Shown piece by piece: positions 2,798-35,206 of a stretch of 64,000 nucleotides of DNA. Each line of letters starts with the position of its first letter. Positions within the stretch are counted from its first letter, which is position 1. Source of the stretch: Minisyncoccota bacterium. GTDB taxonomy: Bacteria > Patescibacteriota > Minisyncoccia > Phycocordibacterales > JAQTLZ01. Both the position numbers and the translations under genes were made by a program. Below the pieces are notes generated by a model. The model saw only the letters and a program-made list of their open reading frames with translations, searched no databases and was not told the origin of the DNA. The stretch spans positions 173,272-237,271 of the forward strand of contig JAQTLZ010000001.1 in NCBI GenBank assembly GCA_028714635.1. Reading direction: 5' to 3'.

Positions 2798-4489
2798 ATG
2801 AAAAAAATTATACAAAAAGACGAAGTTCTCATCTCGTCTCGGTGGGGGAAAGAACTCCATCGACTTGTCTCTGTGATCGCAGTTTCCTCACTTCTTTTAG
2901 GTGTTGTGGCTCCTTTGAGCGCGACAGCTGCTGCTGGTAACTACGAGATAACTCTTAGTTCGCAACAGGTTGGACCATTTTCTATAACTTTGAACGGTAC
3001 TGCAAGCGGTGATCCTATTGTCGGGAAATGTGATGCACAACATATTTCTGTTTTGAGTTGGGATGTTGCACATGGTCAGCTACCTACACCCGAAGATGTT
3101 ACTTTACAAAATTTTGGTTGCAATGATAAGGTTTTAGTAACTGATTGGGCAGCTTCTCATGTATATGCAAATGCCGGCACCTATACTATTCAGGTTAGAA
3201 TTTATCATGCAAACCCTACTGGTGCAGAAGGTTCGGATGTTGCAACGATCGATGTTCCAGTAATTATTCCTCCTGCGACTCTTACGGTTATTAAAGAGGT
3301 GGTTAACAGTACTCAATCAGCCGATGACTTCACTATAAATGTAACTGGTAATGGCGCTTCTCCCGCATCATTTCCAGGTGTTGAATATCCGGGGCAAGTT
3401 GTAAGTCTCCAGCCTGGTGATTACAGTGTTTCTGAAGCGAGTACTACGGACTACACCGCGTCTTTTTCAGCCGATTGTACTGGTTCAGTAGCGTCCGGAG
3501 ACAGTAAGACCTGCACGGTTACGAACACTTTTGTCCCTCCTCCGACCCCTACGCCCACTCCAACTCCTTCTCCAACGCCGACACCAAGTCCAACTCCGAC
3601 TCCAACTCCTTCTCCTACACCTACCCCCACACCGTCTCCAACCCCAACACCGAGCCCAACTCCCTCACCGACACCAGAACCTACTCCTTCGCCCACCCCA
3701 GAACCAACTCCAATACCAAGCGTGACGCCAACCCCAAGCCCCACGCCATCACCCACCCCGTCTCCAACGCCGGAACCAACACCATCACCGACACCAGAAC
3801 CTACTCCTTCCCCAACTCCACAAGCAACTCCAAGCCCAACTCCGGAAATAACTCCTAGTCCTACACCTACTCCAGATGGTGGCGGAGGGGAAACTCCAAC
3901 CCCGACTCCAGAAGCGACTCCGTCTCCAACACCCGAGCCTACTGCCTCTCCGACTCCTGAACCAACAGCCAGTCCAACTCCAGAACCAACTCCCTCTCCT
4001 ACTCCTAACAATGGCGGAGGCGAAAATCCTACACCAACTCCGACTCCTTCTTCCACGCCATCACCAACTCCGAAACCGCATCATTCAGGATCTTCTGGGG
4101 GACGTGTAGGTACGGGCGGAGGTGGTAGTGTGCTTGGAATATCCACTGGGCCTGGTGAAGTGCTTGGAGCTGAAGCTTGCAGTGTGTATCTCAAAACATA
4201 TATACATTATGGATGGAAAAATGATCCAGAAGATGTAAAAAGACTCCAGACATTGCTCAATAGCTATCTGAAAATCAATCTTCCAATTAGCGGTTTTTAT
4301 GGTCCGATGACGAGAGACGCCGTAAATAGACTCCAGGTTATGAATTGGCAAGAAGTGTTAGCTCCTTGGGTACCATTCGGCTTGCCAACGGCACATACTC
4401 CGACCGGATATGTTTACAAGACCACACAACGCTTCATCAATAATTATATTTGTCCGACTCTCAACCTTCCGATTCCGCAACTTCCGTAA
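2798..4489 (+). CDS. secreted cell-surface protein: Cna-B/prealbumin-like fold domain, long Pro-Thr linker, Gly-rich segment, C-terminal putative peptidoglycan-binding domain
   Basis: N-terminal hydrophobic signal; motif YSVSE...TCTVTNT typical of Cna-B-like domains; about 180 aa of (S/T/E)PTP repeats; C-terminus [21 protein letters not shown]...[15 protein letters not shown] resembles the PG_binding_1 domain. Confidence 0.55.
3535..4080 (+). repeat. tandem [13 protein letters not shown]-type coding repeat (Pro/Thr linker)
   Basis: Dozens of 6-15 nt units (ccaactcc, acgccgac, etc.) encoding PT/PS/PE repeats; the antisense GVG-repeat ORF 3451..4056 is an artefact of this repeat. Confidence 0.8.
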
Positions 4490-14346: not shown

Positions 14347-14408
14347 GCGCATCAGTTTGAATGAAAGTTTGTCCCCAGCCTCGCATTCTTTTGCGGGGTT
14401 TCTTCTTG

Positions 14409-14414: not shown

Positions 14415-14423
14415 ATATGGATT

Positions 14424-14446
14424 GAAGCTACCAGCTAAAAGCTACC
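14424..14446 (+). repeat. AGCTAC(C/A)AGCTA heptamer-type dispersed repeat, copy 1
   Basis: gaagctaccagctaaaagctacc in the intergenic region after the adhesin terminator. Confidence 0.5.
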
Positions 14447-14497
14447 CCAGTAGTAGAGCAAAGCTCACTACGGGGCAGGCAGCTAATAAGCTTTTTT

Positions 14498-15025
14498 ATG
14501 GCCTTTACAGACCCAGAACACAACATACAGCAATTTGGACTTCAGTCTGGAGCGAAAGTCGCAGATTTCGGCGCCGGCAGCGGTTTTTATGCTTTTGAAA
14601 TTGCAAAAGCTGTCGGCGGGGCGGGGAAAGTCTATGCGATTGATGTCCAAAAAGATCTTTTGGCAAAAATTAAAAATGAAGGAAGCAAACGCGGATTTAC
14701 AAATATCGAAATCATCTGGGCGGATGTGGAAAAACCGGCAGGCACGCATTTGAAAGCGGATTCAGTTGATGCGGTGCTCATTTCAAACATTCTTTTCCAG
14801 CTTCCTGATAAAGTCGGCGCCGTCGCAGAAGCAAAGCGGATTGTGAAATCAGGCGGACGCATTCTGGTGATTGATTGGACCGATTCGTACGGGGGAATGG
14901 GGCCGGCATTTGATGCGATTTTTACGGCAAAAAAGGCGCAAGAACTTTTCACGAAAGCGGGGCTCACACTGCAAACCCAAATCCGGGCAGGGGATCATCA
15001 TTACGGACTCATTTTTAAAAAATAG
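14498..15025 (+). CDS. class I SAM-dependent methyltransferase
   Basis: Motif I VADFGAGSGFYA; acidic loop YAIDVQ; 175 aa. Confidence 0.65.
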   Translation: MAFTDPEHNIQQFGLQSGAKVADFGAGSGFYAFEIAKAVGGAGKVYAIDVQKDLLAKIKNEGSKRGFTNIEIIWADVEKPAGTHLKADSVDAVLISNILFQLPDKVGAVAEAKRIVKSGGRILVIDWTDSYGGMGPAFDAIFTAKKAQELFTKAGLTLQTQIRAGDHHYGLIFKK

Positions 15026-15027
15026 CT

Positions 15028-16308
15028 ATGTCCAATTTTCAAATTGTTTTTATCGGAATTCTCATCTTTTTTGCTATCGTCGGCCTCATTACTTTTGCAA
15101 TTGTGAGGGCGCCGGAAGGAAGCGCGACCGCATCTGTGGTGATCTGGGGTACGGTTCCCCAACAAACATTTGACGCTCTTTTCACCGCGCTCAATCAAGG
15201 GAAGCAATCGGAGCTTAAAGTAAGTTATGTTGAAAAAGATGAAGCCACATTCGATACTGATTTAGCAGAAGCTATCGCCACAGGCCACGGTCCCGACATA
15301 TTTCTTTTAGGACAAGATAAAATCTACCGCCACTCTGAAAAGATTGCTCTTATTCCTTTTACCGCTCTTACGCAAAGACAATTTCAAGATACTTTCATAC
15401 AAGAGGGGAATATGTATCTCACAGGCAATGGAATTCTCGCTTTGCCTTTCGTGATCGACCCGCTTGTTATGTATTGGAATCGCGATCTTCTCACGAATGC
15501 TTCCGTAGTTGCTCCGCCGAAAAATTGGAGTGATTTCATCGCATTTACTAAAAAGCTCACGCTTAAAAATAATGCATCCGTACTGCTTCAAAGTGCGGGA
15601 GCGATGGGGGAGTTTAAAAATGTCTCCAATGCAAAAGAAATTCTAGCGACACTTCTTCTGCAGTCGGGCAATCCCATTACAAAATATGACCAGATCGGCT
15701 GGGTTTCTGCTCTTGATTCATCGGGAAACTCCGCCGAAGAGGGGCTTCGTTTTTATGCCCAGTTCGGGAATCCGACCAACGAGGCCTACACCTGGAACCG
15801 CTCTCTTCCTCTTTCTATTGATTCATTCGCTTCTGGCAAGCTCGCTGTTTATTTTGGTTTTGCGTCGGAACTCAAGACACTTCGACAGAAAAATCCGAAT
15901 CTCAATCTCGATATGGCACTTATGCCTCAGCCGAAAGAAGTCACAGTTTCAATGACTTTTGGCAGAATGTACGGCCTCGCAATTCTCAAAACTTCGCCGA
16001 ACTTCGTGAGTGCTCTCAATATGATTACGTATCTCACGTCGCAAGATGTGGTAAGAAATTTTGCTGTAGTCAGCGGCTTGCCTCCAACCCGTCTCGATCT
16101 TTTGGCAGTACCCCCGCAAGATTCATTGAGTCCAGTAATGTATTCTTCCGCGCTTCGTTCCCGCGCGTGGTTTGACCCAAATCCGACAGAGACGAAAAAC
16201 ATTTTCCAGCGGATGATCGAAACAGTATCTTCCGGCCAGGAAAAATATTCTGACGCGATAGGGTTGGGAAGCCAGGCGATTCAGCTTTTGTTTAACCAAA
16301 ATAACTAA
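15028..16308 (+). CDS. membrane-anchored extracellular solute-binding-like protein (ABC SBP family 1-like)
   Basis: N-terminal TM; about 400-aa periplasmic-binding-fold-like region (VVIWGT, DIFLLGQD); weak assignment. Confidence 0.35.
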   Translation: MSNFQIVFIGILIFFAIVGLITFAIVRAPEGSATASVVIWGTVPQQTFDALFTALNQGKQSELKVSYVEKDEATFDTDLAEAIATGHGPDIFLLGQDKIYRHSEKIALIPFTALTQRQFQDTFIQEGNMYLTGNGILALPFVIDPLVMYWNRDLLTNASVVAPPKNWSDFIAFTKKLTLKNNASVLLQSAGAMGEFKNVSNAKEILATLLLQSGNPITKYDQIGWVSALDSSGNSAEEGLRFYAQFGNPTNEAYTWNRSLPLSIDSFASGKLAVYFGFASELKTLRQKNPNLNLDMALMPQPKEVTVSMTFGRMYGLAILKTSPNFVSALNMITYLTSQDVVRNFAVVSGLPPTRLDLLAVPPQDSLSPVMYSSALRSRAWFDPNPTETKNIFQRMIETVSSGQEKYSDAIGLGSQAIQLLFNQNN

Positions 16309-16311
16309 AAT

Positions 16312-16770
16312 ATGGCAGACTTATCTTCCTCAAAAAATATACTTTCGAAAATCTTTCTCGGGTTTTTTGTTTTCTTCGTTATTTTCAGTGTTGCTTTGCC
16401 CGTTTTTGCCTGGAGTCCTTTCCAGCCAGTTGTTCCTCCTTGTGATGGTTCGATTACAGCAGAAAATTCTGATCTCAATGACACCCGCACGGGGCAAAGT
16501 GGTTGTGGATATAACGCCTTCCTCCAGCTTGTTTCCAACATCATTCAATTTCTTCTTTATATCGCGATTCCAATTGCAGCTGTTTCGTTCTTTTTTGCCG
16601 GTTTCCTTTATTTGACCGCAGGAGGAAATCCTGGGAAAATAGAAGAGGCTCATCATATCTTTTGGAGTGCGCTTGTCGGAATTATTATTATGCTTGCTGC
16701 GTGGCTCATCATAAATACCATACTTACTGCGCTCGTCGAGAAAGGTTCAGGTTTTAATTTGCTCGGTTAA
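16312..16770 (+). CDS. VirB2/TrbC-like small 'pilin' (two-TM hairpin domain)
   Basis: C-terminal IAIPIAAVSFFFAGFLYLTAGGNPGKIEEAHHIFWSALVGIIIMLAAWLI is a TM-loop-TM unit shared with the four following genes. Confidence 0.45.
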   Translation: MADLSSSKNILSKIFLGFFVFFVIFSVALPVFAWSPFQPVVPPCDGSITAENSDLNDTRTGQSGCGYNAFLQLVSNIIQFLLYIAIPIAAVSFFFAGFLYLTAGGNPGKIEEAHHIFWSALVGIIIMLAAWLIINTILTALVEKGSGFNLLG

Positions 16771-16780
16771 TTTTCGCAAG

Positions 16781-17932
16781 ATGCTTACCATGAAAACAGT
16801 AGAAAAAGTGGAACATATACTTAAAAATAAATCAGCTTTTTTCTTCGGAATCTTTTTTGTTCTCATCTCGTTTCTTATTTTAGGAGCGCTTCCTTCGTCC
16901 GCTTCAGCTGCTACCTGGTGTTCAAAAGATCCAAATAATGTAGTGCATGTATTTGGTTCGGGTCCAGCGTGTACCCAAGGAAGAGATGCTTCCTGGAATG
17001 TGTGCGGTACTTGTGTCGTATGGTGTGCCATTGGCAAAGACAAAAAAGCGGTCAATGCTTTTCCCACCAATGATGCCTGTGTCCAGTCTATTGCAAATTC
17101 GGGAGTCTCCGGCGGTTCTTGTAGGCAGTGTACCTCTACAGATATTGCTACCATCAACAATAAGCTCAAAGGCTATTACGGAACATCGAAACCCACAAAC
17201 GGTTCCCTTTTTAATTTCAATTTAAATGGAATTCTTTTGGGATTCGGCTCTGGATCGTACATGTCACTTTATTCCGCGGATAATACAATTAATCAGACTT
17301 GGTGTGCCGCTTCGGGAGGTGGCAATGTTGTATTCTATAGTCTCAGCAGTTGTGTTGCCGCGGCTGGTTCGCCTGAAAAATGTTCTCCTTGCCAAGATCA
17401 GGGTGCGGGGAATACGACTCCGCTTCCTACTCTCAATACGGAGCCGGGAGCTTATTGTGATGCAAACGGCACGAATTATCCTTCTTTGTCTGCGTGTGTA
17501 AATAGTCAGGCGAACCAAGGCATTGATAGCCCTTCTTGTGGTCCTTGTTCCGATCCTGCTTTAGGGGGAGGTCCTCATCAATCTCCAGCACCCTTTGATT
17601 TGGGTGACACGGGCAAGAAGCCGTTTGATCTCGGTACTACTGGTGGCAGTTGTTCCGGTAGCAATGGCAGATTGCCGAATCCTCTTGGAAATACATGTGA
17701 TTTGTACACGCTTCTCAATAAAATTCTAAAAGTTGCCGAACAGATTGGCGGAGTGATCATTGTGCTCGCTATTATTTACACCGGCTTTCTCTTTGTAAAA
17801 GCTCGCGGGAATAGTGAAGAGCTTGAAACAGCAAAGAGGGCATTTATGTGGACAGTGATTGGGGCAGGGGTGCTTCTCGGAGCGACTGTTCTATCAAAAA
17901 TCATTGAGAACACCATTAAACAATTACAATAA
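16781..17932 (+). CDS. Cys-rich secreted domain fused to a C-terminal VirB2/TrbC-like pilin hairpin
   Basis: Signal peptide; about 280-aa region with more than 20 Cys; C-terminus GGVIIVLAIIYTGFLFVKARGNSEELETAKRAFMWTVIGAGVLL is paralogous to the neighbouring pilin units. Confidence 0.45.
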   Translation: MLTMKTVEKVEHILKNKSAFFFGIFFVLISFLILGALPSSASAATWCSKDPNNVVHVFGSGPACTQGRDASWNVCGTCVVWCAIGKDKKAVNAFPTNDACVQSIANSGVSGGSCRQCTSTDIATINNKLKGYYGTSKPTNGSLFNFNLNGILLGFGSGSYMSLYSADNTINQTWCAASGGGNVVFYSLSSCVAAAGSPEKCSPCQDQGAGNTTPLPTLNTEPGAYCDANGTNYPSLSACVNSQANQGIDSPSCGPCSDPALGGGPHQSPAPFDLGDTGKKPFDLGTTGGSCSGSNGRLPNPLGNTCDLYTLLNKILKVAEQIGGVIIVLAIIYTGFLFVKARGNSEELETAKRAFMWTVIGAGVLLGATVLSKIIENTIKQLQ

Positions 17933-17954
17933 TTTAATAATTTATTTATTTACT

Positions 17955-18269
17955 ATGAATCCATCACAAAATCTTGCTGCAGCATGTGCGATAGACTTCA
18001 CCACTTTGGCAGATTGTATGACAAGGTACTTGGGACAGATTATTCCTGTCCTGGTCGGGGTTGCTGTCATCGGTTTTCTCTATGGAGTACTCCGTTATAT
18101 CTATTCAGGAGGGGATGAAGAAAAACGAAAAGAGGGAGTACGTTTTATGACTTATGGTATTGTCGGTTTGGCCGTTATCACCACACTATGGGCTCTTGTC
18201 GGGATTATTACCCTAAGTGTCGTTGGTACAAATCCAGTGTTGCCACAACTTACTCCGGGCCTTCAATAA
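17955..18269 (+). CDS. VirB2/TrbC-like pilin paralog
   Basis: VGVAVIGFLYGVLRYIYSGGDEEKRKEGVRFMTYGIVGLAVITTLWALV; Met at 17955 inside ORF 17859..18269. Confidence 0.45.
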   Translation: MNPSQNLAAACAIDFTTLADCMTRYLGQIIPVLVGVAVIGFLYGVLRYIYSGGDEEKRKEGVRFMTYGIVGLAVITTLWALVGIITLSVVGTNPVLPQLTPGLQ

Positions 18270-18393
18270 AGCCGTATTTCATATCCACACGTCTTTCTTG
18301 CTGATTTCCCTCGGTTTGTTACCATTAAAGTACGTTTCATTAAAAAAGTCGTTCAACGAAACTTTATTATTAAGTTATTTATTAATAGATAGT

Positions 18394-18735
18394 ATGAAAA
18401 AATCTCTCATCATTGCTTCAGTTTGGGCGCTTCCTGGCTTAGCGTTCGCAGCGGGTTTTGATAATATCATCGGTCTTGCTCAAAGGACTTTGAGCCAGCT
18501 CGTTCCTCTTTTTATTTCTGCAGCAGTCGTACTTTTTCTCTACGGTGTTCTTACTTATATTCTTGCGGGAGGAGATGAAGAAAAGCGATCAGCGGGGCGA
18601 AACACGATGATCTACGGTATTATCGCAATTTTCGTGATGGTATCCGTCTGGGGTTTGGTGAATCTTCTTCGAGATTCGCTCCAGTTGAATCAGGCAAACA
18701 ACGTTCCGAATCTTCTTCCTGCAACTCATAATTAA
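18394..18735 (+). CDS. VirB2/TrbC-like pilin paralog with signal peptide
   Basis: MKKSLIIASVWALPGLAFA signal; FISAAVVLFLYGVLTYILAGGDEEKRSAGRNTMIYGIIAIFVMVSVWGLV; Met at 18394 in ORF 18217..18735. Confidence 0.45.
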   Translation: MKKSLIIASVWALPGLAFAAGFDNIIGLAQRTLSQLVPLFISAAVVLFLYGVLTYILAGGDEEKRSAGRNTMIYGIIAIFVMVSVWGLVNLLRDSLQLNQANNVPNLLPATHN

Positions 18736-18741
18736 AAAGTA

Positions 18742-18770
18742 AAAGAGCTCATCCACGAGCTCTTTTCTTC
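18742..18770 (+). terminator. rho-independent terminator
   Basis: aaagagctc/gagctcttt stem followed by tcttc. Confidence 0.55.
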
Positions 18771-18783
18771 GTCCTCTTTTCCT

Positions 18784-19014
18784 ATGGAATTACTTGGTAA
18801 ATTAGAAACAGCCGTTTTAAATCCCGTTATCATAATCCTCTTTGGAGTTGCGGTAGTTATTTTTGTGTATGGGGTTGTTCAATTTATCTGGAAATCCGAT
18901 GATGAAGAAGCGCGTCAAGTTGGAGCCCAACATATTATGTGGGGACTTATCGGGCTTTTTATTATGACCGCTGCGATTGCTATAAAATCTTTTATCAAAA
19001 GCACAATACAGTAA
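18784..19014 (+). CDS. VirB2/TrbC-like pilin paralog (minimal 76 aa)
   Basis: ILFGVAVVIFVYGVVQFIWKSDDEEARQVGAQHIMWGLIGLFIMTAAIAI; same two-TM architecture. Confidence 0.4.
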   Translation: MELLGKLETAVLNPVIIILFGVAVVIFVYGVVQFIWKSDDEEARQVGAQHIMWGLIGLFIMTAAIAIKSFIKSTIQ

Positions 19015-19058
19015 GCATAAATTCTTTTCTAAGTCATCTGATTTATTTAGGCAAAAAT

Positions 19059-19100
19059 AATAGGCGGGGAGTGGCTAATGCCCCTCCTCGCCTATTTTCC
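19059..19100. terminator. bidirectional terminator between convergent genes
   Basis: Imperfect GC-rich hairpin taggcggggag...ctcctcgccta flanked by A/T runs on both strands. Confidence 0.45.
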
Positions 19101-19101
19101 A

Positions 19102-19686
19102 TCACCTAATATTTGTACATTGTTTACTGGGTTCTATTTTTACATTTACCTGACTTGGATTCAGGTTTTCTATGAGTACCCATTTTGGTTCATAGTCTCT
19201 TGGCGTGCTGGCGCCGATCCGTTTGTCCGCAGTCCGCTCATCCGGAGCCGCCTCGCTTTCCCTGTAGAAAGTTCGGCTGAATTTCTGCGGATTGAAGTCG
19301 TTCGGCGGAGAGGGGATTTCGTAGTGCACTCCTCCGTCAGGCAGGCAAACCAATTTGCTTTTGCCCGGAGGGACTTCCACGATACACGGTAGCTTTACAG
19401 GCACCCGTGGTTGGATCACCTTCGCTGTGACCACCCGAACTACAGTTTTCGTGGGCCGGGTGGATGGAGCTGGCGCTTTTGCTGTTTTCTGCGGCGCTAG
19501 CGCTTTTTCGATTTTCTTCAACTCCAGCGCCTGTTGCGCTGTTGCCTCGGGGGTGGTGGTGCCATATCCGTGTTCGAGGATATACATCACTACGCTCGAG
19601 ATGGGAATGATGAGAAGACCGAGCGCGATCAGTTTCATTATGATCTCGCCCGGTTTCAGATTGATTCCACCGCTGCTTGCACTCAT
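19102..19686 (-). CDS. hypothetical membrane protein
   Basis: 194 aa, one TM helix, Ala/Pro/Lys-rich linker; chosen over the overlapping plus ORF because it is co-directional with the two following genes. Confidence 0.35.
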   Translation of the reverse strand: MSASSGGINLKPGEIIMKLIALGLLIIPISSVVMYILEHGYGTTTPEATAQQALELKKIEKALAPQKTAKAPAPSTRPTKTVVRVVTAKVIQPRVPVKLPCIVEVPPGKSKLVCLPDGGVHYEIPSPPNDFNPQKFSRTFYRESEAAPDERTADKRIGASTPRDYEPKWVLIENLNPSQVNVKIEPSKQCTNIR

Positions 19687-19709
19687 GCCGATCTCCTTTC
19701 AGGTTTCAG

Positions 19710-29886: not shown

Positions 29887-30630
29887 TCACACCCCCGCAA
29901 CTTGCGCGTACAGCATACGATGTTGAACTTTTCCCACCAGATATTCGTGTGACCATTCTGGCTCGGAAAGTATGATTTCCTCCATCTGCTTGGCTAACCG
30001 CGCATGTTCTTCTTCGGCGACGCTGTGCAAACGGAAGAATTTCCCATCCGCCAACAGCCCAGTTTCGGCTAGCGCATGTACTTCGCCCATTGAGCCGTCT
30101 TCGTTGTCACTAACCGCTCCAAGCAAACGAAAGACAGAAGGTTTGGCGAGCAACGATTGGCAGAATGGCCACCACGGCAGATTCTTCTCAGTACCCCTTT
30201 CAAGGCGGAGAATCGCGGGGTGATCTTCGAGAAACACACTGCAATGATCTCCGCTAAGATCGGACATTTGCTCATCTTCGACAAGTTCTTGTCCACACGA
30301 GAGGTGGACAAATATCTTGCGTGCTTCCGCCAACTTCTTCGCTTTAGACCACTCCCGCTCAGTTCGAAGTGTTCCGATGGTTTGTTCGAGCAGGAAGAGC
30401 GTACGCGCCAAGATGAGTGGAAAGTACAACGGAACCGGCCAGAAGCCAATTCCCGGAATGTTTTTGAGATCTTCCGGAATTCGTTCCCGAGCTGCCAACG
30501 CCTTCACGCACTCGCCCATGAAATCCCCGGCAGACGTTCTGCCAAGCACGGCACAAAGTACGCTATTTTCAGCCGTCCTTAAATCCAATTGCCTTAAATC
30601 GCCGACATGAGAGAAAACCTTCTCATCCAT
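29887..30630 (-). CDS. hypothetical protein (possible heme-oxygenase/TenA-like helical fold); GC-rich
   Basis: 247 aa; HSVAEEEHARLAK HxxxExxH-like motif; markedly higher GC than neighbours. Confidence 0.3.
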   Translation of the reverse strand: MDEKVFSHVGDLRQLDLRTAENSVLCAVLGRTSAGDFMGECVKALAARERIPEDLKNIPGIGFWPVPLYFPLILARTLFLLEQTIGTLRTEREWSKAKKLAEARKIFVHLSCGQELVEDEQMSDLSGDHCSVFLEDHPAILRLERGTEKNLPWWPFCQSLLAKPSVFRLLGAVSDNEDGSMGEVHALAETGLLADGKFFRLHSVAEEEHARLAKQMEEIILSEPEWSHEYLVGKVQHRMLYAQVAGV

Positions 30631-30684
30631 GATGATTCCTCCAAACCAGGCCTAGTCCTTACTATTTCTACAATATCTCTGTGT

Positions 30685-31320
30685 TTATGTAAAGACCACC
30701 TTAGAAACTGAGTAATTTTGCATCCGGTAGTATTCCCATTTCAAATTTTTCGGAATTATTTTTTGGATTTCTATTTTCGGCATCTCACCCGTTTCAAAAT
30801 ATAATTTAGTTTTCCATTTTTTGGCAACGATAGAGGCGATCAGCTCTTCGTATGCTCCCAAAATTCCTTTGGGATGAAAAATTGCGATTTTCGGCTCGAA
30901 CTTAAGTTTTTCTGGCGAGTTACTTTTCAGCACGTACCTTTCATCTCCCCACGGAAGATTTGCAACTATGATATTGGGGGAAAAAATATCTAAATTATCT
31001 ACATAATTACCTGAGCTGCAGATTATATTTGCTGTTTTGTGTATTTTTACATTTTTGCGCGTAACCTTCAAAGCCTTCTCATCAATATCAACGGCGTAGA
31101 TTTTTGCACTCGGAAATTCCTTTGCAAGAGTAACAGCAATACAGCCTGAACCAGTACCAACATCGACAATCGATGACGGATTATTCGCTTCCTCTTTAAC
31201 AAGATTCACTAACTGCTCGGTTTCAATGGTTGGGATGTAAGCGCGTTCGTCAATATAAAATGTCTCACCGCAAAAATCGACTTTCTGTGTTTTGTATTCT
31301 TTTGGTTTGTCGTCGATCAT
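30685..31320 (-). CDS. HemK/PrmC-like SAM-dependent methyltransferase
   Basis: VDVGTGSGCIAVTLA motif I; AVDIDEKAL; IVANLPW in place of the NPPY motif. Confidence 0.55.
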   Translation of the reverse strand: MIDDKPKEYKTQKVDFCGETFYIDERAYIPTIETEQLVNLVKEEANNPSSIVDVGTGSGCIAVTLAKEFPSAKIYAVDIDEKALKVTRKNVKIHKTANIICSSGNYVDNLDIFSPNIIVANLPWGDERYVLKSNSPEKLKFEPKIAIFHPKGILGAYEELIASIVAKKWKTKLYFETGEMPKIEIQKIIPKNLKWEYYRMQNYSVSKVVFT

Positions 31321-31343
31321 TTTTCTAAAAATTAGAAAATTGT

Positions 31344-32189
31344 CTAAAAATCTACTCCCCAGAACTTTTTAAACTTAATGGTGATCTTTCTCGCTTTCTC
31401 TGGATTATTTTCGAGCCAGATACTGCATTTTGTTTTCTTTCGAAATATGGCAAGAACAGCTTGGAGATCAAGATCATTTAATGATTTTGTTTTTTCGTAT
31501 ATTCGATCAATCTCCTCAGCCGTCTTTGGATCAAGTTTTACTGTAACAACAAAATCATCGACGACGTTTATATAGGTTGATCGTTCGTTTTGAAAGTCGC
31601 TTTTACTGAATGAATACTCAACTGCTTTTTTATCCCAAAATTTCTCTGTCCATTTATCCAGAAAAGAATTACCTCCAACAATAAGATAAAGTTTTGATTT
31701 TGCCAATTTCAAGGATTCAATATATTGCTTCTCCTGTTTCGTCTGAACTAAGTGAAACCACGGATGCGGATTCCACCCAAGAAGTATCTTCTTTTTCGAC
31801 TGCTGGATTATCATGAGAAGGAGATGAGACCAAAAGTCATTCATTTTTAGTAAATCTGTAAAATGCCAAATCTCCTTTTTATTTATTTCCGGTAAAACGA
31901 GCGGAGATCGAGGCCTTTCGATATAGGTAGAGGAAAGAGTGTCTGCAAGAGAAAGAAAATTGAGCACCCACGGTAATCGTAAGCTATAGCGAGTTTCTAG
32001 TTTAAATAACATTCCTTCCTCTTGGAGTTTCTTTAATTCTTTATAGAGACCTTGAATTGTATACTTTCTGCCGCCAACCTCTACTACTTTTTTATGAATT
32101 TGGGATGCATTGAGAAATTGCTCTGTAGAAAGAGCTTCTAAGATTGTTTCGGCTAGTTTTTTGCGTTCCTTGAGTATTGATTCAACCAT
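31344..32189 (-). CDS. hypothetical protein
   Basis: 281-aa ORF, no recognised motif. Confidence 0.35.
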   Translation of the reverse strand: MVESILKERKKLAETILEALSTEQFLNASQIHKKVVEVGGRKYTIQGLYKELKKLQEEGMLFKLETRYSLRLPWVLNFLSLADTLSSTYIERPRSPLVLPEINKKEIWHFTDLLKMNDFWSHLLLMIIQQSKKKILLGWNPHPWFHLVQTKQEKQYIESLKLAKSKLYLIVGGNSFLDKWTEKFWDKKAVEYSFSKSDFQNERSTYINVVDDFVVTVKLDPKTAEEIDRIYEKTKSLNDLDLQAVLAIFRKKTKCSIWLENNPEKARKITIKFKKFWGVDF

Positions 32190-32282
32190 TTGTTTAAAAA
32201 ATGCCTGTTTTTCGAAATTTTGTTGATATCTAATATATCATACTTATAATCGAATTGGGAATAGGTAAGAAAGGAGGAAGAA

Positions 32283-32624
32283 ATGAACACCGTTGCAGTA
32301 CCCGGTTGTCCGGGAACAGTGGTTGAGGAATTGCCGAGCGCCCTCGGTAGGCAGTTCTTGCGAGTTACAATCGAGCGTGGTGGTGAGGTGCCACTACACT
32401 CGCACGAATGCGCAGCGACCATGATCGTTACTCACGGATCAGCTCGCAAACTTGTCGAGCGCGGAAACGCCGAAAGGGTGAAAGCGGGTGATGTTATCAC
32501 TAAAGCGGCGCGAGAACCACACGGGTTCACAGAAATTGGAGAGGAGGGATTCTCCTTCATTTCCGTTTCTGGTGGTCTCGGTATTGTCCAAGAAGGTGGC
32601 AAGCTCGACATGGAACTTGTTTAA
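32283..32624 (+). CDS. cupin-domain protein
   Basis: Strong SD AAGGAGGAAG; two-His cupin-like motifs (PLHSHE; HGFTEIGEEG); GC-rich; 113 aa. Confidence 0.45.
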   Translation: MNTVAVPGCPGTVVEELPSALGRQFLRVTIERGGEVPLHSHECAATMIVTHGSARKLVERGNAERVKAGDVITKAAREPHGFTEIGEEGFSFISVSGGLGIVQEGGKLDMELV

Positions 32625-32647
32625 GCAGGTTCCTATCAGCCAGCGTT

Positions 32648-32681
32648 AAGGACGGAGAAGAATTCTCTCCGTCCTTTTTTC
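32648..32681 (+). terminator. rho-independent terminator
   Basis: aaggacggagaag/cttctccgtcctt stem then tttttt. Confidence 0.8.
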
Positions 32682-32728
32682 TTGTCTTAATATTCGGGTG
32701 GGGGAAGGGTAGGGGGTGAAGTAAAGGG

Positions 32729-32763
32729 GCAGCTTGTAGGTTGTAGCTATTAACTTGTAGCTT
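32729..32763 (-). repeat. AGCTACAAGCTAC dispersed repeat, copy 4 (reverse orientation)
   Basis: gcagcttgtaggttgtagctattaacttgtagctt is the reverse complement of the aagctacaag units. Confidence 0.5.
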
Positions 32764-32872
32764 AAAATACGAATACTTAAAAAGCCGCGATTGTCTGAAG
32801 GCAATCGCGGCTTTCGCATTGTTTTTTCAAGAATTTTCTGTTACCTTTGTAGGGTAATGAGGTAACGGAAAT

Positions 32873-32955
32873 GCGTCGGTACCCAAGTGGTCAACGGGAG
32901 CAGACTGTAAATCTGTTGGCTTACGCCTTCGTTGGTTCGAATCCAACCCGACGCA
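32873..32955 (+). tRNA. tRNA-Tyr (anticodon GUA)
   Basis: GCGTCGGTACCCAAGTGGTCAACGGGAGCAGACTGTAAATCTGTTGGCTTACGCCTTCGTTGGTTCGAATCCAACCCGACGCA; class II long variable arm; anticodon loop CTGTAAA. Confidence 0.8.
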
Positions 32956-32962
32956 CAAATTA

Positions 32963-32986
32963 AATCTCCCCGAAAGGGGAGTTTTA
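32963..32986 (+). terminator. hairpin with T-run between tRNA-Tyr and structured element B
   Basis: ctcccc gaaa ggggag followed by tttt. Confidence 0.5.
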
Positions 32987-32990
32987 ATTT

Positions 32991-33136
32991 GTGGCCGAGC
33001 AAGACGCGGGGGGGGGGCGTCTTGCGTGGTTGGATTCGAAGCCTCGATAAGCAGATTTTTAAGTTCGTAATCGAACGTAAAAAATCTCCATCGAGGAAAC
33101 TGGTTCTGTAAGAACCGAAATTCCAACCCGACGCAC
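32991..33136 (+). ncRNA. unclassified conserved structured RNA element, copy B (paralog of 22416..22556)
   Basis: Hairpin aagacgc-G10-gcgtctt; stem cctcgat/atcgagg enclosing hairpin agatttttaagttcg taa tcgaacgtaaaaaatct (33042..33095); hairpin ggttc-tgtaa-gaacc; 3' tail aattccaacccgacgcacaa duplicates the 3' end of the adjacent tRNA-Tyr. Confidence 0.45.
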
Positions 33137-33142
33137 AATAAC

Positions 33143-33171
33143 TAAAAACTTCCGCAAAAGCGGAAGTTTTT
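33143..33171. terminator. bidirectional terminator
   Basis: cttccgc aaaa gcggaag flanked by aaaaa and ttttt. Confidence 0.7.
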
Positions 33172-33176
33172 AGTCT

Positions 33177-34964
33177 CTATAACCCTACTGGAGGCATTGT
33201 TTTTGGAATATCAGGCGGGATTTGCGGAGGCACTGGCGGTGGTGGAGGCGTTGGCATTGGAATAGGTGGAGGCGGAGTTGGTATGACCGGCGCTACTGGT
33301 GTTACCGGCATCGTGGGAACAGTTGGGGCAACTTGAGACGCTACTGGTGTCACGTATACCGGTTTTGGAGCGGGAGGCGGAGTAGGAGCTACTGGCATGG
33401 TTTGTACTGGTGGAGGTGGGGGTGGCGGAGGCTGGACGGATGCAGGAGGTGCTGGAGGAGTAGGAGGAATGACAACTGGCGGAACGAATGCTGGTTTCGC
33501 CACTTGTGCCGGGGAGGTCGGCATTACTTGGATTGTCGAAGGCATAACCGATGCTGTGCTAGCAGGAGCCGTGGAGACTGGTTTCGGCGGAGTGGGCATT
33601 GAGGACATCGGAGAAGCTCCTGGCATTGAAGCAGGCGGAATATAATTTGGCTTCATTGTAACTGGTGGCATCATGCCCGGAGAAGGAATAACAGGAGAAC
33701 TTTTTCTTCGGAAGATTTTTATCATGAGAGCTATGATGAGAAGTGCAAAAAATCCAATTCCCATAACAACATACATCATCACTCCCTCAAAAGGAGAGGG
33801 AACGGCCGAACTTTCAGCAACTGGAGTGACAGCCAACTCTTGTCCGGCAGCTACTGCGATGACTGTTGGACTCGGCTGTGCAACTTCAATTTTGAAGGTT
33901 GTGCTTTTATCCATCGAATAATATGCGCTCGAGTAATAATCGGGAAGCGGTCCGACTAAAAGATAAATAAATCCGGTGTAACTTGGCGTATAAGAAACTA
34001 CATTTTTCGTAGAAGCTTGCACGCTGTATGTTTTGCCGATCTCCACTCTGTCCTTGTCTTGAATTTTAAGTCCTGCATTTATTTGCTTGCTTGGGACGAA
34101 ACTCTTTGTCGCGGAATCATACCCGATTGCCTTGTCAGTTGTGATGAGAGTAAGTGTGATGGGGACATTTTCTGTTACGGAGATTTTAAAATAATCGTAG
34201 TCGCCGTTTTTCTGATTGTGATCAAGATGATATGAGGCCGGATCGATCGCGACCGCCGTGTCATACCCATTTCCTCCTCGAATTGCGATCGCGATATCTT
34301 TATCGGTGTTTGTTTTGTCTATTGGCTTTTCGATATCTTGAATTGCTTTGAATCCGGAGATAAGAGATGCTGAATCTGTGGCGTCAAAATATTTTGCTCC
34401 GCCAGCTGTCGCGATTGCCGAAAGTTGCGTTCGTGAAGCGTCGTCAACTCCAAGCCCGATAACATAGGTTTTTATCTTTGCGGACGATGCCAAAAGTGCC
34501 TTAGCAGAAGCCACCGGATCGCCTCCACAGGTATCTTTTCCATCGGTAAGCAGGATAATACTGTTGTCATTTCCCGCTATGAAATCATTTTGAGCTTGGC
34601 TCAAAGCATATGCAGTAGGGGTGTATGTTCCAATAGCATCGATCGCATTTACTTTGCCGATGATCGCATTTCTGTCAGATCCGAACGGCATGAGAAGCTC
34701 TGTTTGTTTGCAGGCTTCTGCTTGAGTAGTTTTTCTTACATTTCCGAATGGACGGAGCGCGGTTATGATGCTTCCATGAAGGCTTGTGATGATGTCAGAG
34801 AGCGCTGATTTTGCAGCAATGATTTTGGTGGTGTTTCCGAAGCTTTCGAGCATCGAGCCGGAAGCGTCGAAGATGAAAAGCATATTTTTTGCTCCGTCTG
34901 CGCGCGCGACCGAAACGGATGAGAACAAGCTCAAAATTATTGTAAAGAGAAATATCTTTTTCAT
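33177..34964 (-). CDS. von Willebrand factor type A domain membrane protein with poly-Pro C-terminal tail
   Basis: Signal peptide; MIDAS motif LFIFDASGSM and ILLTDGKDT; central TM; about 170-aa Pro-rich tail (PPPPPPPPVQ). Confidence 0.6.
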   Translation of the reverse strand: MKKIFLFTIILSLFSSVSVARADGAKNMLFIFDASGSMLESFGNTTKIIAAKSALSDIITSLHGSIITALRPFGNVRKTTQAEACKQTELLMPFGSDRNAIIGKVNAIDAIGTYTPTAYALSQAQNDFIAGNDNSIILLTDGKDTCGGDPVASAKALLASSAKIKTYVIGLGVDDASRTQLSAIATAGGAKYFDATDSASLISGFKAIQDIEKPIDKTNTDKDIAIAIRGGNGYDTAVAIDPASYHLDHNQKNGDYDYFKISVTENVPITLTLITTDKAIGYDSATKSFVPSKQINAGLKIQDKDRVEIGKTYSVQASTKNVVSYTPSYTGFIYLLVGPLPDYYSSAYYSMDKSTTFKIEVAQPSPTVIAVAAGQELAVTPVAESSAVPSPFEGVMMYVVMGIGFFALLIIALMIKIFRRKSSPVIPSPGMMPPVTMKPNYIPPASMPGASPMSSMPTPPKPVSTAPASTASVMPSTIQVMPTSPAQVAKPAFVPPVVIPPTPPAPPASVQPPPPPPPPVQTMPVAPTPPPAPKPVYVTPVASQVAPTVPTMPVTPVAPVIPTPPPPIPMPTPPPPPVPPQIPPDIPKTMPPVGL

Positions 34965-35206
34965 TTTGCCCGCCTAAATTTTCTACTATAGCTCTTACCA
35001 ACCTCAGCCTTATAGAAAATTTATAAATTAATTTTAAAAATCGATTTTTTTATTATGCACCCGAAAACTTTGGCGGGTGAATAAGTCCTACCTTTTAATA
35101 AATACAGTATATCCTGAAAGACGTTTCTTGTTTGATAAGTTTTACACACCGTCTGTCCGGGCTGGCAGGGTTGTAGAGAACGAGAAATCTTGCTACTTTG
35201 TAGGCT

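Follow-up and report, generated by a model that had tools for sequence, protein, structure and literature searches.

Four short tandem arrays of a heptanucleotide, AGCTAC(A/C), are scattered through a 64,000-nucleotide stretch of DNA from a Minisyncoccota bacterium (assembly GCA_028714635.1, contig JAQTLZ010000001.1, positions 173,272 to 237,271), here called the window. They are best explained as a species-specific family of dispersed heptanucleotide simple-sequence repeats (SSRs), a known class of repeat, in the genome of a member of Candidatus Pacebacteria within the Candidate Phyla Radiation (CPR). We give this reading a probability of about 0.6. The window's cysteine desulfurase (IscS), whose gene carries one of the arrays, has an identical counterpart in a Candidatus Pacebacteria metagenome-assembled genome. 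Among the marks of the class are a tandem 7-nt unit, recurrence above chance, a patchy, lineage-restricted distribution, and mostly non-coding placement with ORF copies at tolerated positions in the open orientation, and all of these are found here. The class is further marked by tens to hundreds of sets per genome and by copy numbers that differ between strains; the 77.5 kb sampled here contain four sets, unchanged between assemblies that are 99.94-100% identical. An initial annotation of this DNA had described the same four loci as copies of a dispersed 13-mer. All four are present where it had placed them, but the motif itself had been misjudged: the unit is 7 nt long, with a period of 7 in Tandem Repeats Finder (TRF), and the 13-mer corresponds to two copies.

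Read unit by unit, each locus is a head-to-tail series of two to five heptamers. Array 1 (14426-14446, plus strand) has three units, AGCTACC AGCTAAA AGCTACC, and is intergenic, in the leader of a methyltransferase gene. Array 2 (25464-25498, plus strand) has five, AGCTACA AGTGACA AGCTACC AGCTACA AGCTATC, in frame within the cysteine desulfurase gene. Array 3 (26147-26160, plus strand) consists of AGCTACA AGCTACC alone, in the intergenic spacer between iscS and a peptidase gene. Array 4 (32762-32728, minus strand) again has five units, AGCTACA AGTTAAT AGCTACA ACCTACA AGCTGCC, and lies in an intergenic spacer. TRF reports 4.9 copies of period 7 with consensus AAGCTAC at 25463-25496, within array 2, and a period-14 row at 32731-32763, within array 4. 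An exact 13-mer family was considered and rejected, as only one exact copy exists, at 26147 in array 3, and the other loci differ from it by one or two mismatches.

Three of the four loci are thus intergenic, and the single copy inside an open reading frame (ORF) is forward and in frame. Read from the sequence, a forward unit whose seventh base is A or C has no stop codon in any of its three frames. Its reverse complement contains TAG (in GTAGCT), and over three units this stop codon comes up in every frame; array 4, read on the plus strand, has TAG in all three. A gene can therefore accommodate arrays in the forward orientation only, which is that of array 2. The flanks of the four loci, compared by eye, have nothing in common beyond the heptamers themselves, and neither terminal inverted repeats nor a target-site duplication were seen. 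Scans of the window for further heptamer families, by period 7 and by three-unit arrays, returned background singletons only.

The arrays are genuine and not a product of chance. When up to two mismatches are allowed, the 13-mer has 10 overlapping matches, all of them within the four loci, against 0.73 expected, and none of 100 shuffles reached 10. As the motif had been picked post hoc, the test was repeated over all hexamers. AGCTAC makes three-unit arrays (at most two mismatches) at three loci, while in 100 Markov shuffles of the window three-unit arrays of any hexamer occurred at one locus at most. Both tests uphold the original statement that the motif recurs far more often than chance would allow. 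Outside the arrays, AGCTAC occurs as a single hexamer 23 times, compared with 15.5 ± 4.2 expected and a shuffle maximum of 27, so that there is no clear enrichment of isolated copies. The sampled genome amounts to 77.5 kb, made up of the window plus 13.5 kb from contigs of assembly GCA_028711105.1; this additional sequence contains no array.

Contigs from the same population were available from GCA_028711105.1 (L001, L103, L104, L276 and L277) and from the Logan assembly of SRR22315508 (L278), and are 99.94-100% identical to the window. Every array is unchanged wherever these contigs cover it: array 1 in L276, arrays 2 and 3 in L001, and array 4 in both L277 and the Logan contig. Since the arrays are identical across assemblies, they are not assembly artefacts.

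Related species present a different picture. Three relatives (L002, L003 and L004) were compared over a total of about 50 kb fetched around iscS. Their IscS proteins are 84%, 79% and 77% identical to that of the window by search, or 87, 82 and 80% without the loop in which array 2 lies. These 50 kb contain neither AGCTACN arrays nor any other recurrent family of heptamers, and at the three orthologous sites that can be compared, those of arrays 1-3, the array sequence is missing. Since sister species have no arrays at the orthologous sites, the arrays were probably gained after the split from those species, although the iscS site is ambiguous on this point. The suggestion of a genus-specific interspersed repeat is therefore partly borne out. 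The repeat is lineage-specific, but it is a tandem heptanucleotide, and its range is narrower than the genus, given three relatives without arrays in about 50 kb.

Under the favoured explanation, the arrays would arise and change in length through replication slippage or short templated duplication. They would survive only where they are tolerated, that is, in intergenic spacers, in 5' leaders and in one flexible enzyme loop. In that loop only the forward orientation would be tolerated, with the unit read as ...ATSYKLP.... Any functional effects, such as altered leader spacing at array 3, a hairpin at array 1 or a longer loop at array 2, would most likely be incidental.

The local context of the intergenic arrays agrees with their initial description as lying just after a terminator or 3' of a gene; arrays 1 and 3 additionally occupy the leader of the next gene. 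Array 1 starts 25 nt past a terminator-like hairpin (14377-14400) and 9 nt past TGTATAAT, a -10-like box, and its end is separated by 51 nt from the ATG of the methyltransferase gene (14498). It is part of a segment of about 70 nt (14424-14494, plus strand) that is absent from L003. The methyltransferase leader of that relative measures 17 nt from TATACT to the ATG and includes a GAGGA box, whereas the leader in the window is about 70 nt longer. Beyond the array, the segment also holds heptamer-like pieces containing AGCT (AAGCTCA, AGCTAAT and AAGCTTT). For the RNA of 14417-14500, folding predicts a long, imperfect hairpin (-29.1 kcal/mol, z = -2.8), in which a U-run forms the 3' arm and the stem directly abuts the ATG at 14498. 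This hairpin resembles an intrinsic terminator or attenuator that ends exactly at the start codon. The insertion of about 70 nt would be expected to influence expression of the downstream string of methyltransferase, SBP and pilin genes.

Array 3 begins 28 nt past the iscS stop codon. A trypsin-like peptidase gene starts just downstream (ATG at 26165); the array stops 4 nt short of this ATG, and no Shine-Dalgarno sequence intervenes. Array 3 makes up 14 of the 21 nt that separate a -10-like TAGTAT from this start codon. In L002 and L003 the -10-like box is 8 nt from the peptidase ATG. The whole spacer between iscS and the peptidase gene measures 32 nt in L002 and L003, 40 nt in L004 and 46 nt in the window, and the relatives have no array sequence in it. 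Little weight attaches to the -10-like boxes at arrays 1 and 3, which are readings of the sequence alone; a promoter consensus scan of the window gave 29 sites against 24.6 expected, which is not above background.

Downstream of a cupin gene and upstream of tRNA-Tyr, two terminator-like hairpins (32648-32676 and 32781-32814) bound a spacer of about 100 nt, in which array 4 lies. The array falls within the variable interval between clpB and the alanine racemase gene, where gene content differs in relatives; no orthologous site was available for comparison. In the window this interval (29887-35200) contains three minus-strand genes, the cupin gene, tRNA-Tyr and a VWA-domain gene, while the corresponding intervals of L002 (14849-16514) and L003 (14832-17419) hold one or two genes of different sizes. 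Adjoining array 4 is a run of G-tracts (32696-32729; GGG T GGGGG AA GGG TA GGGGG ... GGGG) that fits a plus-strand G-quadruplex motif. No gene was called in this G-tract spacer and it has no Rfam match; it could represent a small RNA or a structured spacer. By themselves, the arrays fold no better than shuffled sequence. An Rfam scan of the window at gathering thresholds found tRNAs only, and permissive Rfam scans around loci 1 and 4 gave chance-level hits only (E = 0.46-0.82).

The ORF-internal array deserves separate treatment. The cysteine desulfurase gene (24940-26118, plus strand) encodes a class-V aminotransferase of the IscS/NifS type (Pfam PF00266, E = 6.8e-62), and array 2 encodes (K)ATSDKLPATSY(P) in frame. 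The array-encoded residues, 175-186, cover the end of a helix (163-177) and a 10-residue coil before the strand FFHTD (188-192), which carries the conserved H-x-D-A-x-Q motif. The length and sequence of this loop vary across all 27 aligned homologues, and it is 10 residues longer in the window protein than in the closest solved cysteine desulfurase among homologues in the PDB. In an AlphaFold2 model with a mean predicted local distance difference test score (pLDDT) of 88, residues 178-187 are coil and the score falls below 50 at 181-183. The model and the alignment support a placement of the array 2 residues in a flexible, length-variable loop. Peptide words derived from AGCTAC occur in this loop in the window protein only, among the 120 best homologues.

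The initial annotation had interpreted array 2 as a 36-nt in-frame insertion adding ATSDKLPATSYP to a surface loop. The reading frame and the location in a variable, low-pLDDT loop stand, but the event is not an insertion of that size. At this place the three closest homologues have 21 nt, encoding DSGVKIA or a comparable peptide, and the window has 39 nt, which is a net increase of 18 nt (6 amino acids). Nor did the comparison with orthologues, which that annotation had proposed as a check, reveal a clean insertion. In two more distant homologues, P0005 and P0006, the loop is as long as in the window protein, and SYPF, at the end of the segment, agrees with the family consensus.

Several observations weigh against the interpretation of the four loci as recent, slippage-generated repeats, and some of them come from this same loop. 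SYPF in the window protein fits the family consensus YP[YF], which homologues P0002-P0004 have lost. P0006, which is 68% identical, carries another heptamer array, AAGCTTC GAGCTTT AAGCTTT (L005:620-665, contig JAWVHF010086177.1), of the same length at the same place in IscS. By our count, its loop DNA matches that of the window at 33 of 48 positions. P0005 (L006), 77.5% identical to P0006, lacks such an array and has an unrelated loop sequence, and no such loop array is present in P0002, the sister of the window protein (86.8%). The history of the loop does not fit a simple recent insertion. To judge from these sequences, arrays may have arisen there twice, an old array may have been lost several times, or the segment may have been moved by recombination.

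Further difficulties concern the family as a whole. Slippage accounts for the expansion of a unit; it does not account for the presence of one unit at four unrelated sites without a seed, and at the sites of arrays 1 and 3 the relatives have no seed sequence. No copy-number difference was seen among the three assemblies, though this is a weak test, as they diverge by only about 0.01-0.06%. In addition, the four loci span 18.3 kb, and the other 59 kb of the sampled genome are without arrays. By our calculation, the probability that four points placed at random in 77.5 kb fall within so short a span is about 0.04, which amounts to mild clustering and may leave room for a local process.

Arrays of the same heptamer are not confined to this genome. 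The pattern AGCTACNAGCTACNAGCTAC, equivalent to three consecutive AGCTACN units, was scanned in a collection of species-representative genomes and matched at least 120 stretches across bacteria. Taxa among the matches listed include Alcanivorax, Halomonas, Pseudomonas, Shewanella, Bacteroides, Acidobacteriota and Gemmatimonadota, among others, and several genomes were matched on two or three contigs. The same matches include 12 stretches from CPR bacteria (Saccharibacteria, Peribacteria, Uhrbacteria, Microgenomates and unclassified Patescibacteria) and one from a DPANN archaeon. Among the matches listed, the CPR arrays have a median of 4 units and a maximum of 7, with A, C or T at position 7, while the more GC-rich genomes outside the CPR have longer arrays and favour G at this position.

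The abundance of such arrays has to be read against suitable controls. In viral contigs, three consecutive AGCTACN units occur in 50 stretches, and three composition-matched control heptamers in 9, 16 and 26, where about 0.7 would be expected by chance (our estimate, from the implied database size). Heptamer arrays in general are thus far above chance, and AGCTACN, only 2-5 times commoner than the controls, is not exceptional.

In the CPR and DPANN loci, in-frame arrays were found in genes for Lgt (twice), LspA, a Mur ligase and a Bud32-like kinase, and in three prepilin leader peptides. The latter belong to three adjacent prepilin-type genes (Pfam N_methyl) of a Saccharibacteria contig (L120:744-3501, CAZSMD010000011.1), each with the leader MNRINPTSYKLQATHSSRGFTLVEM, in which 3-4 AGCTACA units in tandem encode the part PTSYKLQAT. 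Because the gain or loss of a single unit would alter the reading frame, these arrays are a candidate slippage switch of pilin expression in a CPR bacterium. A 21-nt string, AGCTACCAGCTACAAGCTATC, is common to the iscS array of the window (25478-25498) and an Lgt array of Uhrbacteria (L152:3374-3407), and is read in the same frame, as KLPATSY, in both genes. The sharing may be a coincidence that stems from the use of one unit, or it may hint at a common source.

Other arrays lie close to start codons. Arrays ending 1-6 nt before a start codon are present in L137, L154, L105, L132, L150 and L179. In a set of 147 arrays, from the window and 120 other loci, the ATG of an ORF of at least 100 amino acids lies within 5 nt of the array end in 9 forward and 2 reverse cases; this count rests on crude ORF calls and is suggestive but weak. 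Classification of arrays by open-frame length over-calls coding arrays, as it counted window loci 1 and 3 as such, and was used qualitatively only. In L209 (4920-4991), L170 (2270-2353), L131 (2020-2121), L133, L141, L150 and L175, a reverse array is paired with a forward one, with a short spacer between them. Such pairs form long potential hairpins, some of which adjoin terminator-like sequences, and none occurs in the window.

The closest known parallel is the TAACTGA repeat, which occurs in 169 sets of 2-6 copies in one Beggiatoaceae genome, mostly between genes and sometimes within ORFs, and also in some Cyanobacteria and Bacteroidetes (MacGregor 2015, PMC4679880). Many of these sets end a few nucleotides before a start codon that has no ribosome-binding site, and S1, Csp and CsrA-like proteins were proposed as binders. 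The phylogenetic distribution is sporadic, with no evident mechanism of transfer (PMC4679880). Both families use one 7-nt unit in small sets (2-6 there, 2-5 here) at many separate loci, and in both some sets are split by related heptamers, which in the window are AGTGACA, AGTTAAT and ACCTACA. Array 3, just before a start codon without a ribosome-binding site, is placed like many TAACTGA sets. In both cases a minority of sets lies inside ORFs at tolerated positions, and one orientation is closed by stops in all three frames. The differences lie in the unit itself, in the closed orientation, which is the reverse here (TAG in GTAGCT) and the forward for TAACTGA, in the number of sets, with four documented here in 77.5 kb, and in the host, a small-genome CPR bacterium. 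How one unit spreads to sites without a seed is as unexplained here as in the known heptamer families.

Other repeat classes resemble the arrays less closely. According to the summary in PMC4679880, Mrazek et al. (2007) described long simple sequence repeats (LSSRs) with units of 5-11 nt, with heptanucleotides as the commonest class in the majority of prokaryotic genomes. Polymerase slippage is given there as their proposed origin, and their distribution among species as patchy. The window arrays share the tandem 7-nt unit, but they are short (2-5 units) and imperfect, whereas the criterion of that study, as summarised, is a length above genome expectation. The GGGNATC and GGGGA(C/T)T repeats of Xanthomonas and Nostoc form arrays of 2 to 26 units that are over-represented in non-coding regions and near the starts and stops of ORFs, and most are transcribed (Rehm 2015, PMC4692102). 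Those repeats are G-rich, fold into G-quadruplexes and prefer four units, in contrast to AGCTACN, which has no G-tracts and folds weakly alone. What they have in common with the window arrays is the organisation as dispersed heptamer arrays. This organisation is also that of the cyanobacterial short tandemly repeated repetitive (STRR) sequences, the units of which are heptamers. Searches of the literature for AGCTACN, in its rotations and orientations, and for such repeats in Patescibacteria found no relevant paper.

Among the competing explanations, the strongest is that the arrays are selected cis-regulatory sites in 5' leaders, bound in trans by an RNA- or DNA-binding protein or by a ribbon-helix-helix repressor; it remains a minority possibility. 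Tandem heptads can serve as operators for ribbon-helix-helix repressors, as with omega of pSM19035. On this explanation, the ORF-internal copy and the copy between terminators would be by-products. It would make sense of array 3, which ends so close to an ATG with no Shine-Dalgarno sequence in between, and of the forward orientation of arrays 1 and 3 relative to the next gene, each starting 3-9 nt past a -10-like hexamer. The excess of forward over reverse arrays near start codons in other genomes (9 and 2) points the same way, as does the similar placement of TAACTGA sets (MacGregor 2015, PMC4679880). These start-codon-proximal arrays, here at locus 3 and elsewhere, lend some support to a protein- or RNA-binding role, which the initial annotation had listed among its possibilities. 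However, there are only three intergenic loci, and array 4 has no gene downstream in the forward direction. The -10-like boxes lack statistical support (29 sites against 24.6), and the start-codon comparison, with its crude ORF calls, is weak. The genes downstream of arrays 1 and 3, for a methyltransferase and a peptidase, are unrelated, close relatives do without the arrays, and no candidate binding protein was identified.

A broader version of this idea is less probable still. AGCTACN arrays could be a selected and possibly horizontally spreading element that is shared by CPR bacteria and DPANN archaea with small genomes and by some other bacteria, and that is inserted as pre-formed units. 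If so, the arrays would replace the Shine-Dalgarno leader upstream of start codons and be read by a common RNA-binding factor, and the other place of insertion would be surface loops and prepilin leader peptides, in frame. The family would then be the counterpart of the proposed TAACTGA network in a lineage whose gene regulation is almost unknown.

Slightly more doubtful again is a small mobile or templated-insertion element, either a hairpin unit resembling a miniature inverted-repeat transposable element (MITE) or patches copied by ectopic gene conversion. Such an element would explain how pre-formed units arrive at sites without a seed sequence, as the relatives imply for arrays 1 and 3. 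The insertion of about 70 nt at locus 1 relative to L003, a long hairpin built largely of AGCT-containing pieces, would fit, as would the inverted array pairs of other genomes (the seven loci named above) and the occurrence of AGCTACCAGCTACAAGCTATC in both the window and Uhrbacteria. Yet the four loci share nothing but heptamers, the hairpin body exists at locus 1 only, and array lengths are unequal, at 2-5 units. No transposase or reverse transcriptase was tied to the arrays, in a window search that was not exhaustive, and a shared 21-mer can stem from one unit read in one frame.

It is improbable that the arrays act as contingency loci, in which a change of one unit switches a gene by frameshift or by altered spacing between promoter and start codon. 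Within an ORF, the gain or loss of a 7-nt unit does shift the frame unless three units change together, array 3 sits suitably between a -10-like box and an ATG, and the prepilin leader arrays of the Saccharibacteria contig represent a classic setting for slippage switches. The SSR contingency loci of Haemophilus, Neisseria and Moraxella likewise consist of tandem short units in ORFs or in the interval between promoter and start (PMC11868660). In the window, by contrast, the ORF-internal array lies in a housekeeping cysteine desulfurase and is interrupted, with 3 of 5 units perfect, which lowers slippage. No array exceeds five units, and none shows a length polymorphism in any covering assembly of the same population, despite single-nucleotide differences elsewhere.

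The proposal that the motif might be a DNA uptake sequence, like the DUS of Neisseria or the uptake signal sequence (USS) of Pasteurellaceae, and be read by a nearby type IV pilus or competence machinery, now appears very improbable. The resemblance is to a short, specific, over-represented motif in a genome with type IV pili, some copies of which are near terminators. Type IV pilus genes are indeed present in the window (T2SSE, T2SSF, N_methyl and T4SS_pilin hits in L103 and L276), and two loci adjoin terminator-like hairpins. The proposal fails on density, single-copy enrichment, arrangement and conservation. There are 4 loci in 77.5 kb, rather than about one per kb on both strands and within genes too, and single AGCTAC copies show no clear excess (23 against 15.5 ± 4.2). 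The copies are tandem and direct, neither single nor arranged as inverted pairs. In about 50 kb, three related species do not have the motif at all, and AGCTACN arrays occur in many unrelated phyla.

A chance coincidence of similar short sequences can be set aside: two-unit matches with one mismatch are, by our estimate, individually not rare across all hexamers, but 10 matches where 0.73 are expected, three-unit arrays of one hexamer at three loci where no hexamer exceeded one locus in 100 shuffles, and the independent detection of arrays 2 and 4 by TRF leave it almost no weight.

One other repetitive feature of the window is separate from the heptamer family. Inside the ORF at 2798-4489, which encodes 563 amino acids and has no Pfam hit on record, nested repeats with periods of 6, 12, 18 and 24 nt (ACTCCA / CCAACG-type) extend over 3542-4005 and would encode a low-complexity stretch rich in proline and threonine.

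The finding has little practical consequence for this window alone: an annotation of the motif as an uptake signal would be unwarranted, as would a reading of the IscS segment as a functional insertion. The case adds a CPR genome to those known to carry dispersed heptanucleotide repeats, which are still unexplained. Comparison with sister species that lack the arrays at the comparable sites allows insertions of this kind to be delimited to the base. The in-frame arrays in housekeeping enzymes and pilin leaders may also be of interest to work on the evolution of protein loops and on pilin variation in CPR bacteria and DPANN archaea.

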